From an uncultured Ruminococcus sp. (lineage in GTDB: Bacteria; Bacillota; Clostridia; Oscillospirales; CAG-272): a stretch of 64,000 nt of DNA. Below, piece by piece: positions 3,390 to 35,610 of the stretch. The position numbers and the translations under genes are program-made. The stretch's first letter is position 1. The number at the start of each line of letters is the position of its first letter. The notes beneath the pieces are model-generated. The model was not told the origin of the DNA and ran no database searches. It saw nothing but the letters and a program-made list of their open reading frames with translations. The DNA lies in the NCBI GenBank assembly GCA_964623635.1, contig CAZUUA010000001.1:35452-99451 (forward strand), given 5' to 3'.

Positions 3390-3766
3390 GAAATTGTAAC
3401 TTGCCTTTCTGTCTTCCGTGCTCCGGGCAGTCTGGCCGGGGAGACGGGACGGTATGGTAAAGGCGGCTGCTTTCGACAGAGAAAACCGAAAAATCTCCGC
3501 TCTCGTCATCAAACAGCATTCCTTACTATAAGTATATCACAAAGCCTTGGTCAATACAACAAAAAATGCAAAAAAATTTTTGTGAGATTCTCCGAATCCT
3601 TTGGAAATTTGGGGAAGACTGTTGTAATTATGCGCAGAGTGTGGTATGATATGGAAAGAATCGTCTGTCTGAAATTGGTACGATTTAGCAAAATAGCCGA
3701 TTTCGGAAAAACAAGCAGGACCACAAAGACATATGATCCCATCGAAAGCAAAGGAGAAGCACATAT

Positions 3767-4801
3767 ATGGCAGAAGAGATCCGTGAAGTGGAAATGAGAG
3801 AGGGCACCGCACTGACAGCCCAGGCAAGAGCGCTCATCGATGAAGTGGAAAAGGTCGTGATCGGGAAGCACAATGAGGTGGTGCTTTTGGTGACGGCGCT
3901 GCTGGCCGGCGGACACGTGCTGATCGAGGACGTGCCCGGTACCGGGAAGACCACGCTGGCCTCCGCATTGGCAAGAGCGGCAGGACTGGACTTCAATCGT
4001 GCCCAGTTTACCCCGGACGTGATGGCATCGGATATCACCGGCTTCAACGTATACAATCGACAGAAGGAACAGTTTGAGTTCAACGAAGGTCTGGTCATGA
4101 CCAACATCCTTTTGGCCGATGAGATCAACCGTGCCTCGCCCAAGACCCAGTCGGCGCTGTTGGAGGCCATGGAGGAATCCCGTGTGACCGTAGACGGTGT
4201 GACCTATCCGGTGCCGGATCCGTTCATGGTCATCGCCACCCAGAACCCCACCGGCTACGTAGGTACCTATCCGCTGCCGGAAGCCCAGCTGGACCGTTTC
4301 GCCATGCGGCTGTCCATGGGATATCCCACGCTGACCGAGGAAGTGCAGATCATCACCGACCGCCGGAAGACCAGTCCCATGGAAAAGGTGCGTCCCATCA
4401 CGGATATGGAGACCATCCGGATGCTGCGTGCCATGGTGCAGAACGTGACCGTCTCGCCGGAGATCGCCGAATACATCGTCACCCTGATCCACGCCACCCG
4501 AAAATCCCGGAAGCTGTCCTTGGGTGCGTCTCCCCGTGCGTCCCTGCTGTTGATGAAGCTGTCCCAGGCCTATGCCTTCTTAAAGGAAAGAGACTATGTA
4601 AAGCCCGAGGACGTGGCGTTCGTATTCACACCGGGCATTGCACACCGTATCGTCCTGAGCCAGGAAGCAAGACTGAACCGGGAAACGGCAGAGGGCATTT
4701 TGTCCGAGCTGCTCCGTGGTACCGATGTGCCCTTCCATGGGGAACGGTATTCCGACAAGCCCAATCGCCGCCGGGAAGATCGGGACAATAAGGAAGCGTA
4801 A
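3767..4801 (+). CDS. MoxR-family AAA+ ATPase
   Basis: Walker A is DVPGTGKTTLA and Walker B/sensor is LLADEINRASPKTQSALLEAMEE. An AAGGAGA RBS precedes the start. Confidence 0.9.
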   Translation: MAEEIREVEMREGTALTAQARALIDEVEKVVIGKHNEVVLLVTALLAGGHVLIEDVPGTGKTTLASALARAAGLDFNRAQFTPDVMASDITGFNVYNRQKEQFEFNEGLVMTNILLADEINRASPKTQSALLEAMEESRVTVDGVTYPVPDPFMVIATQNPTGYVGTYPLPEAQLDRFAMRLSMGYPTLTEEVQIITDRRKTSPMEKVRPITDMETIRMLRAMVQNVTVSPEIAEYIVTLIHATRKSRKLSLGASPRASLLLMKLSQAYAFLKERDYVKPEDVAFVFTPGIAHRIVLSQEARLNRETAEGILSELLRGTDVPFHGERYSDKPNRRREDRDNKEA

Positions 4802-4813
4802 GGAGAGCCGCCG

Positions 4814-6487
4814 ATGAAAGAATCCCATACAGGTCACACTCCCTTCCGGCTCCATGGGGGACTGGCGATTTATGGTGCGTTGTTCGTCTTTTCGATCGTG
4901 TTCACCCAGGCACTGCGATCCATTGCCTCGTCCCTCTTTTTCACGTTCCTGCTTTTGTATCCCATCGTGGCGCTGCTGTACGTGCTCATCGGTCGGCTGA
5001 CGATCCAGGTGTTCGTGCAGGCGGACCAGACCCGGACAGAGAAAATGACGCCCACGGCCTATGAGATGCGGATCATCAATCCCACGCCGCTGGTCTTTCC
5101 CTTTGTGGAGGCGCATCTGCAAATGCCCCAACCGGATGGGATCCGCTGTGAACGCCGCACCATGCGCCTGACCCTGCTGCCGCTGGATAGCTGCAACATC
5201 GCAGAAAAGGCCGTCTTTCCCTATCGAGGCACCTATGAGATCGGCATGGAGGACGTGTACATCAGCGATTTTCTGCGACTGTTCAGCATTCGTCTGCCCG
5301 TGGATATCTACACGAATATCCTGGTGATGCCCAGACGCCTGGGTGCCGAACGCCGCACGAGGACCTCTGCCACCGATATCCCCAACGACAATGCCGCACT
5401 GGTCTTCTCTACGGAAAAGGCAGAGATCGGCAATATCCGGGAATACATCCCCGGCGACGCACTAAAATCCATCCACTGGAAGCTGTCCTCCAAAACGCCG
5501 CAGACGCTGATGGTCAAGGAGTTCAACACCAACACGTCCCGGCAGGTATATGTGCTGTGCGATTTTTCCTGCGCCATTCCACCGGACGTGTTTGCACCGG
5601 AGGAAAAGGAAGAAAAGCCGGAAAAGCCGATGAAAAAAGAAAACGAAGCCGTGAAGCTCCAGACACCGTTGTCCGTGGAAAAACCGAAGAAGGTGAAAAA
5701 GCGCAAGGGCAGAACGGCTGTAGGGGAAGCGGATGCGGCCATGATCGACGAGCTGATCGCCGGTACTGCCGAGCCCACCGCCATGGGGATCCTCCGTGAC
5801 AAGCTGACGGACAAAAGACAACAGCAGGTGGCAAAGCAGGTGCAAAAGCTCACAGAGTCCCTGAACGGAGACGGCGCACCAAAGGAAAAGGACCCGACAG
5901 CAGACCCGGCTTATCAGGCTGCGTCCCTGGCGATGGGTGGTCGGATCCAGACCAAATACCGGAACGACATGGACGAATACTGTGCCGACGGCGTGGCAGA
6001 GATGGCCATTGCCGTGGTGGAAAACGAACTGCGGCAGGGCAACGAGGTCACGCTGATCTGGATGGACAGCCGTATGGAAGACGGTATCGCCTGTGCGTAT
6101 CTGACCTGTGTGGAAGACTTTACGGCTCTGTACGAGACCTTTGCCACCACGCCGGCCTGCACGGAGCACCAGACCTTGGAACGACTGCTGCCCTTGATCA
6201 CCGAATCCCTGAACGTGACCATCCGCATCTGCACGTCCCACATCGATCCGGTGTCCTTGGGACAATATGGTGCGATCCCCTCGCTGTTTGGCGGCGCCGG
6301 CAGTGGATGTCTGGCAGAGGTGCTGCTGTTCAATCCGGAGGAACGCTACGAAAACGTGTCCCTGCGCCGGGAATATGTTGCCATGAGCCGGATCCAGCTG
6401 GCAAAGGATGGGGTCGAGTTGACGGAGCTGTCGGTGGAAAACGAGACCGAAGGCACGCCCATCCTGCGTGAAGTACAAAATAGGTAA
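4814..6487 (+). CDS. DUF58 domain-containing membrane protein (MoxR partner)
   Basis: It carries the DUF58 signature IREYIPGDALKSIHWKLSSK and two N-terminal TM helices. A central K/E/P-rich low-complexity insert (PEEKEEKPEKPMKKENE...) is also present. Confidence 0.8.
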   Translation: MKESHTGHTPFRLHGGLAIYGALFVFSIVFTQALRSIASSLFFTFLLLYPIVALLYVLIGRLTIQVFVQADQTRTEKMTPTAYEMRIINPTPLVFPFVEAHLQMPQPDGIRCERRTMRLTLLPLDSCNIAEKAVFPYRGTYEIGMEDVYISDFLRLFSIRLPVDIYTNILVMPRRLGAERRTRTSATDIPNDNAALVFSTEKAEIGNIREYIPGDALKSIHWKLSSKTPQTLMVKEFNTNTSRQVYVLCDFSCAIPPDVFAPEEKEEKPEKPMKKENEAVKLQTPLSVEKPKKVKKRKGRTAVGEADAAMIDELIAGTAEPTAMGILRDKLTDKRQQQVAKQVQKLTESLNGDGAPKEKDPTADPAYQAASLAMGGRIQTKYRNDMDEYCADGVAEMAIAVVENELRQGNEVTLIWMDSRMEDGIACAYLTCVEDFTALYETFATTPACTEHQTLERLLPLITESLNVTIRICTSHIDPVSLGQYGAIPSLFGGAGSGCLAEVLLFNPEERYENVSLRREYVAMSRIQLAKDGVELTELSVENETEGTPILREVQNR

Positions 6488-30103: not shown

Positions 30104-32725
30104 ATGAGAGACGATATCAAAAGCTTTATAACGACCGTTGCCAAGCCGGGGCGATATTCCGGCGGTGAGACCGGTAGCGTGTTCAAGGACCTGGGCAAAG
30201 TCAAGATGCGTGTGGCGTTTTGCTTCCCGGACGTGTATGAGATCGGAATGTCCAATCTGGGGATGCGGATCCTGACCGGGTGCTTCAATGCCTTAGATGC
30301 GGTCTGGTGTGAGAGAGTGTATGCGCCTTGGGTGGATATGGCGGCCGAGATGGAAAAGCGGCACATTCCGCTGTTCACCCACGAAAGCGGCGACCCGGTC
30401 TGCGACTTTGACGTAGTGGCCTTTACCCTGCAGTACGAGCTGTGCTACACCACCATGCTGAAAATGCTGTCCTTGGCCGGTATCCCTATGCGCCGGGAAG
30501 ACCGTGGGGAAGACGGACCGGTGATCCTGGCCGGTGGCCCCTGCTCCTACAACCCGGAACCGGTGGCAGACTTCGTGGACATTTTCTCCATTGGGGAAGG
30601 CGAAGAGGCGCTGCAGGAGCTGGCACTGCTGTATATGCGCATGAAGGACGAGGGCACCTACACCAAGTCTGCGTTCCTGTATGCGGCGGCTACGGAGCTG
30701 CAGGGCTTCTACGTGCCGTCCCTGTACGACATTGCCTACCACGACGACGGGACCATCGCTGCCATCACGCCCAAGGATGACAAGGTGCCGGAAAAGGTGG
30801 TCAAGCGGGTCATTGGGGATCTGGACAAGTGCTACATTCCCACGGACACAGTGATCCCCTACATCGAGACAGTGCAGGACAGAGTGACCATCGAGATCAT
30901 GCGTGGCTGCGTCCGGGGCTGTCGGTTCTGTCAGGCCGGCTTTGTGACCAGACCCGTCCGGGAACGTTCGCCGGAGCTGCTGAACGAAGCCTGTCATACC
31001 ATGATCAAAAACTCCGGCTACAGCGAGATCTCCATGTGTACCCTGTCCGTCAGCGACTACTCCAAGATCCGGGAGCTGACCGACCAGCTTCTCTCCTGGA
31101 CAGACGACGAAAAGGTCAGCCTGTCTTTGCCGTCCATGCGTGCCGACAGCTTCACCAAGGAGCTGATGGAGAAGATCTCCTCTGTCCGTTCCTCGACCCT
31201 GACCTTCGCACCGGAAGCCGGTTCCCAGCGTCTCCGGGACGTGATCAACAAAAACATCACCGAGGAAGCGATCCTCCGTGCGGCCGGTGTGGCATATGCT
31301 GCCGGGAAGAACCAGGTGAAGCTGTACTTCATGAACGGCCTGCCCTACGAGACCTACGAAGACCTGACCGGTATTGCGGAGCTGTCGAAGCACGTGGTGG
31401 ACGAATACTATCGCACGCCCAACCGGAATAAGGCAAGACAGCCCCAGGTCACTCTGAGCGTCGCCTGCTTTATCCCCAAGCCCCACACGCCCTTCCAGTG
31501 GGAAAGACAGAACACCTTTGCCGAGCTGGAGGACAAGCAGCACTTCCTGTCCGAGCAGATCACCGACCGGAAGGTGCGCTACAACTACCACGACGCCAAG
31601 GTGTCCCACATCGAAGCGGTGTTTGCCCGTGGCGACAGACGAGTGGGCAAGGCGATCCAGACGGCTGTGGAACGTGGGATGTGGCTGGACGCATGGGAAG
31701 AACAGTTCCGGTTCGAGGACTGGATGCAGGTGTTTGCCGACTGTGGTATCGACCCGGCCTTCTATGCCAACCGTACCATTCCGGACGAAGAAATTTTGCC
31801 TTGGGATATGATCGACTGCGGTGTCACCAAGGCCTTCCTGCTGTCCGAACGACATAAGGCTGCCCAGGCTGCCACCACACCGTCCTGTCGGGAAAAGTGC
31901 TCCGGCTGCGGCGTGAACAAGCTGGTGGACAAGCAGTACTGCCGCTGGTGCCCCGGTCATCCGGATTCCTCCGACAGTGCCGGAGACATCGCCGGAGACT
32001 ACAAGCCCAAGGAAAAGCCGGAAGCACCGGTGAAGGGCAGCATTAAACCGGCACGTACCCTGCGGATCCGCTTTGCCAAAACGGGTCCGGCACTGTATAT
32101 TTCCCATCTGGATCTGTCCAAGGTCATGAGCCGGTGTATCGTGGCTTCCGGTCTGCCGGTGTACTACACGGAGGGCTTCAATCCCATCCCAAAGCTGGTG
32201 TTCGCTACACCGTTGTCTCTGGGCTGCGGCGGTGACGAAGAGGTGCTGGACATCCGGCTCCTAAAGGACGTATCCAATGTGGAGGCCATGGAGAAGCTTC
32301 GTGGCGCTATGGCAGAAGGGATTGTGGTGAAGGAAGTGTACACGGCACGGGATAAGATCTCCGACATCCAGTACGCCCACAACCGGATCACCTACGGTGG
32401 CTTTGAGCCGGCAGACTATATGGTGGACGCCATCAACGATCTGTTCCGGAAGCCGGTGGTCATGCTGAAAAAGTCCAAGAGCGGCGAAAAGGAAGTGGAC
32501 ATCTGTACCTTCATCCGCTCCATCGAAGCGAAGATCGAGGACGTGGATGGCAAGCAGACCTTAGTGATCGATGCCATCACCTCGGCCAGTCAGGAAAGCT
32601 ACCTGAATCCGGAATACATTGCCGCAGCCATCGAACGGGAATTTGCTCTGTCCGGTGAAGACGGCTACCACACCATCTGCCGGAAGCATTTGTATTTGGC
32701 AGACGGCGTGACGCTGTTCCATTGA
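30104..32725 (+). CDS. TIGR03960-type B12-binding-domain radical SAM protein fused to a TIGR03936/DUF2344 domain
   Basis: Start at MRDDIKSFITTVAKPGRYSGGE. The CxxxCxxC motif is CVRGCRFCQAG. The C-terminal part (RIRFAKTGPALYISHLD) is the DUF2344 module. Confidence 0.85.
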   Translation: MRDDIKSFITTVAKPGRYSGGETGSVFKDLGKVKMRVAFCFPDVYEIGMSNLGMRILTGCFNALDAVWCERVYAPWVDMAAEMEKRHIPLFTHESGDPVCDFDVVAFTLQYELCYTTMLKMLSLAGIPMRREDRGEDGPVILAGGPCSYNPEPVADFVDIFSIGEGEEALQELALLYMRMKDEGTYTKSAFLYAAATELQGFYVPSLYDIAYHDDGTIAAITPKDDKVPEKVVKRVIGDLDKCYIPTDTVIPYIETVQDRVTIEIMRGCVRGCRFCQAGFVTRPVRERSPELLNEACHTMIKNSGYSEISMCTLSVSDYSKIRELTDQLLSWTDDEKVSLSLPSMRADSFTKELMEKISSVRSSTLTFAPEAGSQRLRDVINKNITEEAILRAAGVAYAAGKNQVKLYFMNGLPYETYEDLTGIAELSKHVVDEYYRTPNRNKARQPQVTLSVACFIPKPHTPFQWERQNTFAELEDKQHFLSEQITDRKVRYNYHDAKVSHIEAVFARGDRRVGKAIQTAVERGMWLDAWEEQFRFEDWMQVFADCGIDPAFYANRTIPDEEILPWDMIDCGVTKAFLLSERHKAAQAATTPSCREKCSGCGVNKLVDKQYCRWCPGHPDSSDSAGDIAGDYKPKEKPEAPVKGSIKPARTLRIRFAKTGPALYISHLDLSKVMSRCIVASGLPVYYTEGFNPIPKLVFATPLSLGCGGDEEVLDIRLLKDVSNVEAMEKLRGAMAEGIVVKEVYTARDKISDIQYAHNRITYGGFEPADYMVDAINDLFRKPVVMLKKSKSGEKEVDICTFIRSIEAKIEDVDGKQTLVIDAITSASQESYLNPEYIAAAIEREFALSGEDGYHTICRKHLYLADGVTLFH

Positions 32726-32855
32726 GAATGGAATTATGTTTAGCTGAGTAAGAAAGCAAGCCATATGACTCTCGAAAATTTTGAGAAGTTTATAACGAAA
32801 TAGTGAATTGCATGGTGATGCTCTAAGGAAACACGGAATCAAATTAAAATACAGA

Positions 32856-32893
32856 AAATATCCCCCTGGAAACACGTACCGGGGGGATATTTA
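32856..32893. terminator. Bidirectional hairpin terminator between the radical SAM gene and the XRE gene
   Basis: AAATATCCCCCTGG ... CCGGGGGGATATTT, flanked by an A-run and a T-run. Confidence 0.6.
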
Positions 32894-32899
32894 TATTGT

Positions 32900-33115
32900 T
32901 CAACACATTTCCACTGTATTGCTTCTTCCTACCAGATAATCCAAAGATACATGATAATGGTCTGCTAACTGGATTGCTGCCCACAGTGGAATTTCTCTTT
33001 CGCCCCTTTCGTATCGCTGATACACCGTCAATTGCATATGCAAAATATCTGCCACATCCCGTTGGGTCAGATCATGGTCTTCCCGAAGATCTCGTATTCT
33101 TCTGTACATTGACAT
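32900..33115 (-). CDS. XRE-family helix-turn-helix transcriptional regulator (71 aa)
   Basis: Start MSMYRRIRDLREDHDLTQRDVADILHMQLTVYQRYERGEREIP, preceded by AAAGGTGG. The 175-aa ORF in the track is an upstream extension with no RBS. Confidence 0.85.
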   Translation of the reverse strand: MSMYRRIRDLREDHDLTQRDVADILHMQLTVYQRYERGEREIPLWAAIQLADHYHVSLDYLVGRSNTVEMC

Positions 33116-33160
33116 TTGTATACCACCTTTGCTTTTTATTACAAAAATAGTATACACAAA

Positions 33161-33204
33161 AACACCATTTGGTGTTGACAAATAGCACCATACGGTGTTA
33201 TAAT
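33161..33204 (+). promoter_or_regulatory. Sigma-A type promoter with two CACC-N4-GGTG palindromic operators (candidate XRE binding sites)
   Basis: TTGACA (33175-33180), an 18-bp spacer, then TATAAT (33199-33204). The palindrome AACACCATTTGGTGTT (33161-33176) overlaps the -35. CACCATACGGTG (33186-33197) lies in the spacer. Confidence 0.6.
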
Positions 33205-33284
33205 AGAGATGCGGAAAATGTAAGTGAACGCTGGTTGAGGTTAATCGGCGTTCCCTTAACAACATCAAAAAAGGAGAAAAGACT

Positions 33285-34043
33285 ATGGAAATGGTATCTG
33301 CCCTGGAAGTCTGTTTGGAGGTAACGCAAAAAATTGAAGGATGTTCGAGCAAGATGTGCGTTATGGAGGAACAAATCGAAACCTTTGATAGCGAAATTGC
33401 AAAGTACGAAGAAAAAATCAACCCCACAATAATTATGCGTATCCGATACTCGATTAGTTATGCACTTATGGCGTTCGTCATTCTTATGTTTCTGTTCATC
33501 AAGATCGGCGACCAGATCGCCTACAACATCCCGATGTCTGATAGCACAGTTTATGCCATTTTTAATGGAATGGTCATTGTAGCAGGAATACTATCTATCC
33601 TCTTTAGCATTCTGTGTACTTTTCTCTTGAAAAAACGCAACAAAAAGAAGCAGCAGGAAGTTATGCATTACAAGGCAAATATGGAACAAAGTTTAGCGAA
33701 CTTGGAACAACCGCTCCGAGAACTGATCAATTCTCCAGAAAACGAACTGTGCAAAAATCTAATTCCACCCGATTACAAAAAATCTGCTATTATTGAGAAA
33801 TTTATTTACTTTTTTCGCAATGGTCATGTGACCACTATGCAGGAAGCTGTAGTTGCCTATGACAAATTCCGGCATGAAAAGAAAATGGAGCATTATGCAT
33901 ACGAAGCTGCCGACAATGCCAGAATTGCTGCTAACAACACAGCAAGTATCGCCAACAGCACAGCGAGTATGCAGAAATCCCTCAATGAATTGGAAGCGAT
34001 CGCTGCCTATAATACCTACCTGAATATGAAAAATAATAGTTAA
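33285..34043 (+). CDS. Hypothetical 2-TM protein with N- and C-terminal coiled-coil-like segments
   Basis: AAAGGAGAAAAG RBS. The gene is low in GC. Two hydrophobic helices are present (YALMAFVILMFLFIKI; MVIVAGILSILFSILCTFLL). I recognise no family. Confidence 0.6.
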   Translation: MEMVSALEVCLEVTQKIEGCSSKMCVMEEQIETFDSEIAKYEEKINPTIIMRIRYSISYALMAFVILMFLFIKIGDQIAYNIPMSDSTVYAIFNGMVIVAGILSILFSILCTFLLKKRNKKKQQEVMHYKANMEQSLANLEQPLRELINSPENELCKNLIPPDYKKSAIIEKFIYFFRNGHVTTMQEAVVAYDKFRHEKKMEHYAYEAADNARIAANNTASIANSTASMQKSLNELEAIAAYNTYLNMKNNS

Positions 34044-34111
34044 GTTAACGCTGATTCATATGGAAAACTCGTTAAAGAAACCACATATGCAAGTTTTCCT
34101 AAATCGTTGCC

Positions 34112-34291
34112 TTAAGGCACCACCGCACAATTCACGGCTAACGCCTTGATGGCACATCTGCTTGCATCTTTCCCGTCATACTTCACAAATCCACCTTGCC
34201 TTACGAGTGTAAGCCTGCGGTGAATTTGTTTTGTCTGACGAAAAATCTGCCGACGCATCTGCATCATCAGAATTGTGCGGTGGCGCCTTAA
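34112..34291 (+). mobile_element. MITE-like element, copy A (172 bp at 34116-34287, flanked by TTAA/TTAA)
   Basis: The terminal inverted repeats are GGCACCACCGCACAATTC and GAATTGTGCGGTGGCGCC. The whole element is an imperfect palindrome with a central CTTAC-GAGT-GTAAG hairpin. It has no coding capacity. Confidence 0.8.
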
Positions 34292-34292
34292 C

Positions 34293-34320
34293 AAAAAATA
34301 CGCAGTCCCCGCGTATTTTT
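34293..34320. terminator. Bidirectional hairpin terminator
   Basis: AAAAAATACGC-agtcccc-GCGTATTTTT. A second hairpin, CCCCCACA...TGTGGGGG (34321-34352), sequesters the DUF421 RBS. Confidence 0.6.
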
Positions 34321-34360
34321 CCCCCACATTGGGCATACTACCGGTGTGGGGGAATTTTTT

Positions 34361-35029
34361 ATGCTGACGGTTTTTTTGCGAACGATCTTCGTCTATGTAT
34401 TTTTGTTGGTGGTCATGCGTGTCATGGGCAAACGGCAGGTGGGAGAGCTGCAGCTGCAGGAGCTGATCGTGACCTTTATGCTGTCGGAGCTGGCGGTCAG
34501 TCCCATTGCCGATCCGTCTGCACCGCTGCTGTATGCCATCATTCCCATATTGACGCTTCTCTCCATCGAGCTGATCCTGTCCTTCTGGATGACCCGTTCC
34601 AATCGGATGAAAAGACTGCTCTCCGGCAAACCGGCTTTGGTGATCTGCAAGGGCAAGCTCGACCAAAGGGTCATGGCAGACAACCGGCTGGAGATCGAGG
34701 AGCTGTTGGCAGAGCTGCGGCAAAACGGTGTGGCATCACCGACAGAGGTGCAGTATGCGGTGCTGGAAGAAAATGGAAAACTGTCGGTGTTCCCCAAGGC
34801 CGGGTATGGCGCCGCTACCTGGCAGGAGCTCCAAAACGGTGCCGCAGAGACCGGGATCGCCCATGCGGTGGTGGTGGACGGTGAGGTGAGAGGGGAAGCG
34901 CTTGCTTTGGCCGGTCGGGACGAAAAGTGGCTCACGGCCTATCTGCGGCGAAAGAAGCTGCCTTTGCCCATGGTGTTTCTCATGACCGTAGACGACAGCG
35001 GAGACGTGTATCTGGTGGCAAAGGATTGA
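34361..35029 (+). CDS. DUF421 domain-containing membrane protein (YetF-like)
   Basis: Start at MLTVFLRTIFVYVFLLVVMRVMGKRQVGELQ, the typical DUF421 N-terminus. Confidence 0.85.
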   Translation: MLTVFLRTIFVYVFLLVVMRVMGKRQVGELQLQELIVTFMLSELAVSPIADPSAPLLYAIIPILTLLSIELILSFWMTRSNRMKRLLSGKPALVICKGKLDQRVMADNRLEIEELLAELRQNGVASPTEVQYAVLEENGKLSVFPKAGYGAATWQELQNGAAETGIAHAVVVDGEVRGEALALAGRDEKWLTAYLRRKKLPLPMVFLMTVDDSGDVYLVAKD

Positions 35030-35056: not shown

Positions 35057-35434
35057 ATGCGTGTGTTTGTGCTGGCGTTGGTGGTATTTGTGGCGACGGC
35101 AGGCTGTATCGGCTGGGGAAGCTGGTACGTCCAAGGACTGTGTGACCGGCTGACGGAGGTGCTTTCGCAAATGACAGCGCTGGCACCGGGCGACATCGAC
35201 AGCTACACACAGATCTACAAGACCTACGAGAAGCTTTGGAAAAGTGGCAGATTCTGGCTCCATCTGTTGGACGGACACAAAGGTGCCGATAGTATTGAGG
35301 AGCTGTTCACGGAGCTGGGTCTGCGGTATCTGGCCGGGGACGAGCTGGGTGTGGCGGTGGTGCAGGAGAAGCTGACCCTGCAAATCGATAAACTTCGGGA
35401 AGGCGAAAGGATCACGGTGGACGATATTTTCTAG
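35057..35434 (+). CDS. DUF4363 family protein
   Basis: N-terminal TM helix, a helical body and the C-terminal ...ITVDDIF. It is the usual partner of DUF421. Its TAG stop lies inside the CTAG that flanks MITE copy B. Confidence 0.75.
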   Translation: MRVFVLALVVFVATAGCIGWGSWYVQGLCDRLTEVLSQMTALAPGDIDSYTQIYKTYEKLWKSGRFWLHLLDGHKGADSIEELFTELGLRYLAGDELGVAVVQEKLTLQIDKLREGERITVDDIF

Positions 35435-35610
35435 GGCGCCACCGCACAATTCTGATGATGCAGATGCGTCGGCAGATTTTTCGTCAGACAAAACAAATTC
35501 ACCGCAGGCTTACGCTCGTAAGGCAAGGTGGATTTGTGAAGTATGACGGGAAAGATGCAAGCAGATGTGCCATCAAGGCGTTAGCCGTGAATTGTGCGGT
35601 GGTGGCCTAG
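35431..35610 (-). mobile_element. MITE-like element, copy B (172 bp at 35435-35606, flanked by CTAG/CTAG), inverted relative to copy A
   Basis: By hand alignment, the reverse complement matches copy A at 170 of 172 positions. Confidence 0.8.

Follow-up and report, generated by a model that had tools for sequence, protein, structure and literature searches.

A 172-bp non-autonomous hairpin element inserted beside a DUF421-DUF4363 operon in a gut Oscillospirales bacterium, and its probable IS5-family partner

Results

Organisation of the locus

The window analysed here, a 64-kb stretch of DNA from the source genome, contains a gene for a DUF421 protein of the YetF type (34361-35029, plus strand; Pfam PF04239, 5e-33), followed by a DUF4363 gene on the same strand (35057-35434; Pfam PF14276, 4e-5); the same two gene calls were also made on the metagenome contigs L001 and L002. 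A 172-bp non-coding element that forms an end-to-end hairpin is located on either side of the two genes: copy A at 34116-34287 on the plus strand and copy B, its reverse complement, at 35435-35606 on the minus strand. As the copies are inverted, the DUF421-DUF4363 operon is bracketed by the pair. Copy A lies between two TTAA tetranucleotides (34112-34115 and 34288-34291) and copy B between two CTAG tetranucleotides (35431-35434 and 35607-35610). The 18-bp terminal inverted repeats (TIRs) of copy A are GGCACCACCGCACAATTC at 34116-34133 on the plus strand and, as reverse complement, GGCGCCACCGCACAATTC at 34270-34287 on the minus strand. Those of copy B are GGCGCCACCGCACAATTC at 35435-35452 on the plus strand and, as reverse complement, GCCACCACCGCACAATTC at 35589-35606 on the minus strand, the latter with one mismatch to the consensus GGC(A/G)CCACCGCACAATTC. 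This consensus fits the termini of both copies except that one end of copy B begins with GCCACC. A preliminary description of this DNA, made from the sequence alone, had reported two 172-bp copies with 18-bp TIRs and with identical flanks on both sides of each copy; the sequence agreed exactly with this, while the inverted arrangement of copy B relative to copy A had passed without mention.

Allowing up to three mismatches, the TIR pattern occurred four times in the window, in each case at an end of copy A or B, against an expectation of 0.18, and none of 100 shuffled windows contained four occurrences. Copy A and the reverse-complemented copy B formed an inverted repeat of 183 nt with 97% identity; the copies themselves were 98.8% identical and differed internally at two positions, 34117 and 34208. 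Folding energies for the strands of copy A were -73.2 kcal/mol (z -8.5) and -97.1 kcal/mol (z -12.9), the z values being relative to dinucleotide shuffles, and a long end-to-end hairpin was formed by each copy, so that the hairpin structure proposed earlier was borne out by strong folding scores on both strands. Coding capacity of ORF size was absent from the element. Neither further copies of the element nor a transposase of the IS5 type was found in the 64-kb window, the latter result in line with the earlier statement that no transposase lies there, and rRNA and tRNA genes were likewise not found in it. The lack of both an ORF in the element and a transposase in the window supports the earlier proposal that the element is non-autonomous and mobilised in trans.

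The DUF4363 gene ends with a TAG stop codon (35432-35434) that lies within the left CTAG of copy B and was preserved by the target duplication. Since a stop codon can be read in YTAR on either strand and YTAR is regenerated by the duplication, insertion can take place exactly at gene ends with the protein unchanged, and copy B is an example of such an insertion.

Two hairpins could also be observed between copy A and the start codon of the DUF421 gene (34296-34360): a terminator-like stem at 34296-34318, and at 34319-34354 a 14-bp stem followed by a T-run, containing the ribosome-binding site GGGGGAA in front of the ATG at 34361. Together, they may constitute a terminator or a regulatory leader.

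Contig L001 lacked a 1.6-kb segment of the window (32721-34312) comprising an XRE-type HTH gene (32900-33115, minus strand), the gene of a 252-aa membrane protein (33285-34043) and also MITE copy A. In this contig, the radical-SAM gene was followed by 24 unrelated nt and then by the DUF421 gene. The missing segment has the appearance of an accessory indel of two genes that distinguishes strains.

Filled and empty sites in closely related strains

The exact window proteins were looked up in public assemblies, which yielded short Logan metagenome contigs 98.7-99.7% identical to the window. Copy A was absent from L002, L003, L004 and L206. An empty A site with a single TTAA and no element was present in L002, L004 and L206, reading AAATCGTTGCC-TTAA-CAAAAAATACGC with CGTTGCC immediately before TTAA; the A site was filled in L205 and L208, both of which ended inside the element. 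Conversely, the B site was filled in L002-L006, contigs that ended 23-27 nt inside the element, and empty in L001, where a single CTAG was found in the context GACGATATTTT-CTAG-ATCATATTGTGG or, in a shorter reading, ATATTTT-CTAG-ATCATATTG. The empty sites that the preliminary description had asked for, with a single TTAA or CTAG, were thus present in near-identical metagenome contigs.

A further insertion was detected in L003 at a second TTAA of the same intergenic region (34045-34048), which is empty in the window. Positions 1-32 of this contig read TAGCCGTGAATTGTGCGGTGGTGCC-TTAA-CGCTGATTCATATGG, i.e. the end of the same MITE joined to the TTAA at 34045-34048. The element was inserted there in the orientation of copy B, 67 bp upstream of the A site, which itself was empty, and one base past the stop codon with which the preceding 252-aa gene ends. 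One strain population is therefore polymorphic for three independent insertions, all of them at YTAR sequences and within a span of 1.6 kb, and the element is still moving between closely related strains.

As only one TTAA or one CTAG is present at the exact empty sites, the duplication is 4 bp long. A duplication of TA only, as made by elements of the IS630/Tc1-mariner type, was rejected for the same reason, as these sites showed that 4 bp had been duplicated.

The separate A and B alleles also indicated that the copies had arrived separately and that the DUF421-DUF4363 genes are resident and not cargo. This bears on the reading of the pair as the ends of a single unit, either a 1.5-kb composite transposon A-DUF421-DUF4363-B or a cassette flipping between inverted repeats. 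The arrangement has features that such a unit would show, as the copies are inverted and 98.8% identical with two genes between them, the outer TIRs are in an orientation usable by a transposase and comparable inverted pairs bracket genes in the genome loci L059 and L060. Matched duplications, however, flank each copy separately, the block as a whole has TTAA on one outer side and CTAG on the other, and the occurrence of copy B without copy A in L002-L004 and L206, together with the absence of copy B from L001, indicates separate insertions into a resident operon. A flipped arrangement was not seen either, but short contigs cannot span the repeats, and inversion by homologous recombination between the copies is possible. 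Overall, a single composite or invertible unit was considered highly improbable.

Members of the exact subfamily to which the window copies belong were seen at three sites only, all at this one locus, i.e. as two copies and one allelic site, the 64-kb window being the part of the source genome that was read. An internal 25-mer of this subfamily gave no match in viral contigs.

A family of related elements in gut Oscillospirales

When one genome from each species was scanned for the terminal 18-mer, at least 102 stretches were listed, about 75 of which were real. Among the matches listed, all real stretches derived from gut Oscillospirales, and the remaining ones were lone chance matches in unrelated phyla. 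Carriers were Faecalibacterium sp. CAG:74, Gemmiger sp. An194 and An50, Subdoligranulum, Candidatus Cibiobacter, Allofournierella massiliensis, Lachnoclostridium sp. MSJ-17 and many MAGs. The hairpin elements with the same termini had a length of 160-190 bp. Because similarity between the real hits among the matches listed always ended 160-195 nt from the terminus, all of these are small elements, with no full-length IS among them. Several sequence families could be distinguished, all with the terminus GGCACCACCGCACAATTC at one end, while the opposite end has a less perfect version, e.g. GGCAACACCGCATAATYC. The element of the window is thus one of a large group of hairpin MITEs, 160-190 bp in length, from gut Oscillospirales and, with a third site at the locus and copies of the related families, it is not limited to the one pair, which had been named as an observation that would speak against a MITE.

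Identical 4-nt flanks were found in 21 of 43 complete related copies, compared with 9% expected from flank composition. The matched flanks included TTAA, TTTA, TTAG, CTAA, CTAG, ATAA, TAAA, TATA, CTAT, CTTG, CAAG and TGTA. Several of these are not palindromic (TGTA, CAAG, TTTA, ATAA, CTAT and CTTG), indicating that the flanks are neither extensions of the stem nor fixed parts of the repeat; that they might be fixed parts had been raised as an objection, and their variation among the 43 copies removes it. Together, the empty alleles and the varying matched flanks in related copies confirmed the target-site duplication. The alternative 3-bp TAR duplication, which had been left as possible, was excluded by the empty sites and by the 4-nt matched flanks, among them CAAG, CTTG and TGTA. 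YTAR accounted for 37 of 88 MITE flanks and the others were mostly A+T-rich one-base variants; target choice was accordingly looser than strict YTAR, with TTTA, ATAA, CTTG and TGTA also found.

Several copies per genome could be observed in Faecalibacterium sp. CAG:74 and in W1P1.020. In the MAG E27__bin233, at least 21 contig ends stopped about 105-135 nt inside identical copies of one family (loci L007, L011-L014, L023, L027, L028, L039, L042, L048-L050, L065, L067, L080, L085, L101 and L102), which indicates a recent burst in that genome. Contig ends inside copies also imply that the element fragments short-read assemblies. In a plasmid collection, the only matches were unannotated Subdoligranulum variabile records with 69-80% identity, and the window itself had no match there.

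An IS5-family insertion sequence with the same termini

At the genome loci carrying the MITEs, no transposase was found. A search for full-length IS among the genome hits, using relaxed TIR pairs 600-3500 bp apart, recovered pairs of MITEs only, and the ORFs that such pairs enclose in L059 and L060 were ordinary metabolic genes. The terminus was, however, also present on three viral or prophage contigs, one of which (L111) encodes an ORF resembling InsH of E. coli. The IS in L111 (2916-4047) is 1132 bp long and flanked by CTAA on both sides; its termini are GGCAACACCGCATAAATGG and GGCAATACCGCATAGAAAA, with TIRs beginning GGCAACACCGCATAA. The 325-aa protein contains the Pfam domains DDE_Tnp_1 and DUF772 and matched the NCBIfam model NF033581 'IS5 family transposase' with 339.9 bits (cut-off 140), while its best non-IS5 NCBIfam match was IS1182 with 149.5 bits (cut-off 270). 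The transposases of L112 (identical to L111) and L119 were 42-43% identical to InsH1 of E. coli K-12 over the full length, with E values of about 1e-91 to 4e-93.

Ninety further copies of the IS, 1126-1136 bp in length, were obtained from viral and human-gut metagenome contigs. Their flanks were nearly all YTAR and were identical on both sides in 31 of the 75 copies with both ends (41%; CTAA 17, TTAA 7, TTAG 5, CTAG 1 and TTTG 1). Mismatched flanks mostly consisted of two different YTAR words and were tentatively attributed to chimeric assembly across the repeat or to recombination between copies. IS5 is known to insert at 5'-YTAR-3', this sequence being the duplication (PMC5009759). The assignment of a 4-bp YTAR-type duplication to IS5, made in the preliminary description, therefore agreed both with the literature and with the flanks of the IS, and the suggested link to the IS5 group was strengthened by the finding that an IS with cognate termini has an IS5-family transposase and YTAR flanks.

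The termini of the IS were identical to those of related MITE copies at 17/17 to 18/18 positions: the 5' end of L116 to L093 and L026, the 5' end of L119 to L007, and the 3' end of L132 to L104, L077 and L086. The TIR of the window matched the IS terminus of L116 at 16 of 18 positions. At position 5 of the TIR, all sampled IS copies had A (GGCAAC or GGCAAT), whereas the window copies had C (GGCACC or GGCGCC). IS and MITE were found together on the contigs L111 and L134, and in L134 a 160-bp MITE copy flanked by CTAG on both sides was located about 200 bp from the IS. Beyond the TIRs, the arms of the MITEs showed no similarity to the subterminal regions of the IS (z <= 2.9). An origin of the MITE as a simple deletion derivative of the sampled IS was ruled out, the interiors being dissimilar to the subterminal parts of the IS. 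In L116, the IS copy closest to the TIR of the window, the transposase gene (1501-2475) contained an in-frame stop, and this copy is probably dead.

A tblastn search of annotated collections with the transposase returned only IS5 relatives of less than 60% identity in Proteobacteria. The homologues in the protein database were gut IS5 transposases, nearly identical and numbering in the thousands, with 'IS5 family transposase' as their sole name and no ISfinder name among them.

A partner from another family was also considered, i.e. an IS630/Tc1-mariner-type enzyme duplicating TA only, or a transposase of the IS1380, IS701 or IS1182 type. Both flanks in the window have a central TA, IS630 presumably targets CTAG, and duplications of about 4 bp are made by several other transposase families. 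Yet some matched flanks of related copies (CAAG/CAAG and CTTG/CTTG) have no central TA, a duplication of TA only would require different terminal bases in two copies that differ at two internal positions, and the only IS found with these termini belongs to the IS5 family. There is thus very little probability that a different family moves these elements.

Conservation of the hairpin and strand asymmetry

Between families, only the termini were common, and the identity of the interiors was 0.52-0.66 compared with 0.50 for shuffled sequences. Every family nevertheless folded into a stem of 55-67 bp, with z mostly between -9 and -10 and -3.7 in the weakest case. Covariation was investigated by aligning eight relatives of the window copies, a small set of related sequences to which the usual caveats apply. 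The consensus hairpin comprised 64 pairs, 18 of which changed on both sides with pairing kept among these eight sequences. Paired cells amounted to 92.4%, compared with 83% in column shuffles (a value as high was reached in none of 500) and 35-43% when the partners were slid.

In 33 of 39 copies, the better-folding strand was the one matching the plus strand of copy B. The advantage of this strand was 16 kcal/mol on average and up to about 40, and it contained 6-10 G.U pairs at positions that are C.A mismatches in the complement. Of the six exceptions, at least four (copy B, L046, L074 and L106) have two near-exact TIRs and had for this reason been oriented the other way round by the script. 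An invariant U.G wobble was found at alignment columns 47/122 within the conserved motif TTTTTCGTCAG / CTGACGG in all eight copies; in copy B it corresponds to window positions 35481 and 35549, with a C.A mismatch on the other strand. The element also contained a terminator-like motif.

The orientation of the copies relative to neighbouring genes was determined from GC3-based gene calls that had been checked on the window. Between tandem genes, the better-folding strand was the sense strand of the neighbours without bias (7 versus 9), and next to 3' ends a preference for sense was likewise not observed (5 versus 8). No sequence in the window reached the gathering score of an Rfam 15 model, and across the elements matches were absent even at E <= 1. 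In view of the missing orientation bias and the missing Rfam match, no host-level RNA function was assigned.

These data were weighed in relation to the idea that the elements matter mainly as structured RNA, e.g. as terminator, mRNA stabiliser or small RNA, and that the hairpin is kept for this function. Such a role could account for compensatory pair changes that preserve the hairpin, for a hairpin kept in all families despite near-random interiors, for the better folding of one strand through G.U pairs and for the terminator-like motif, and in copy B, which is located at a stop codon, the better-folding strand is the sense strand. Against it, the elements did not match Rfam even at E <= 1, the better-folding strand was not preferentially the sense strand of the neighbours, and copy A lies in the poorly folding orientation relative to both of its neighbouring genes. 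Moreover, an RNA function leaves the target duplications and the empty sites unexplained and would at most add to the transposon explanation. It was judged unlikely as the main role of the elements.

The hairpin might instead be required over its whole length, and not just at its 18-bp ends, for the function of this group of MITEs, a proposal made tentatively and rather doubtful in itself. It is suggested by the compensatory maintenance of a 55-67 bp stem while the interiors diverged, and by the wobble pairs on one strand regardless of gene orientation. If correct, the element could be recognised or moved as a folded single strand, either as a DNA hairpin at the replication fork or in a transposition intermediate, or as an element-borne RNA. 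This would be an unusual requirement for a DDE transposase of the IS5 type.

Discussion

Origin and mobilisation of the element

The repeats of the window are very probably independent insertions of a 172-bp non-autonomous MITE whose partner is an IS5-family (IS5-group) transposase acting in trans. The interpretation given in the preliminary description is thus correct in all essentials, and the element is a textbook-type MITE of an ordinary kind. By analogy with DDE elements of the IS5 type, a transposase supplied in trans would bind the 18-bp TIRs and excise or copy the element, which would then be joined to cuts staggered by 4 bp in an A+T-rich tetranucleotide, with a preference for YTAR and with TTAA as the most frequent target; repair of the gaps would give rise to the 4-bp direct duplication. 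The putative cognate enzyme is the IS5-group transposase of the 1.13-kb IS abundant in human-gut metagenomes, as suggested by the same termini, duplication length and target motif in this IS. The sequence comparisons strongly suggest that the copies of the window were moved by the 325-aa IS5-family transposase or by a closer, unsampled relative with GGC(A/G)CC termini.

Comparison with known elements

Like the element of the window, IS5 of E. coli, with its transposase InsH, has a 4-bp YTAR target duplication (PMC5009759). Both also have TIRs of 16-18 bp beginning with GG; the IS5 terminus GGAAGGTGCGAACAAG and the TIR of the window have the pattern GG.A....CG.ACAA in common (11 of 18 positions). 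The gut partner IS and E. coli IS5 are of similar build, with 1.13 kb versus 1.195 kb and an ORF of 325 aa versus 326 aa (42% identical). Unlike E. coli IS5, the element of the window is only 172 bp long and has no ORF, and it forms one long hairpin, whereas both IS5 and the gut IS have short TIRs only. It also differs from E. coli IS5 in its host, a gut bacterium of the Clostridium class, and in that target choice of the MITE group is looser than YTAR.

The Correia/NEMIS elements of Neisseria and the RUP elements of Streptococcus pneumoniae are non-coding, TIR-bounded, multi-copy MITEs of 100-200 bp; they are mostly intergenic, form long hairpins and are polymorphic between strains, and to this extent the element of the window can be likened to them. 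In contrast to the element described here, with its 4-bp duplication and IS5-family partner, they have a TA duplication and are connected with other families of transposase. The ERIC/IRU elements of enterobacteria are imperfect palindromes of similar size in which, as here, the structure is preserved, and a role at the RNA level has been proposed for ERIC or Correia elements. To our knowledge, ERIC has no demonstrated transposase partner. The present element differs from ERIC in having TIRs, target duplications, empty sites and a cognate IS, as well as in the lack of an orientation bias relative to genes. No paper describing the element was found in the literature searched; large MITE surveys may already contain it, and one MITE survey mentions Faecalibacterium merely in passing.

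Implications

Current thinking on how transposons work is left unchanged by these results, and their value is practical and local. The repeat is widespread and currently active in bacteria that are among the most abundant commensals of the human gut, namely relatives of Faecalibacterium, Gemmiger and Subdoligranulum. As it differs at single loci between near-identical strains, it could serve as a strain marker, and copies of the element are sites at which short-read assemblies break. Copies landing next to gene ends, or directly at them, could affect the ends of transcripts or how neighbouring genes are expressed. Together with the very abundant gut IS5-family element, the MITE forms a testable pair of transposase and substrate for IS5-type transposition in Clostridia, and the conserved hairpin with its strand-specific wobble pairs bears on what such elements need beyond their terminal repeats.

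Inverted pairs of related MITEs bracketing genes could also be observed elsewhere. In L059, the two copies were located at 1681-1852 and 5074-5245 and enclosed genes that, by eye from their translations, were sugar-acid-dehydratase-like and lactate-racemase-like; in L060, copies at 1871-2030 and 3675-3837 enclosed genes resembling those of a hydrolase and a D-Ala-D-Ala-dipeptidase, likewise judged by eye from the translations. These pairs may have arisen by chance at high copy density or may represent a route to composite mobilisation.
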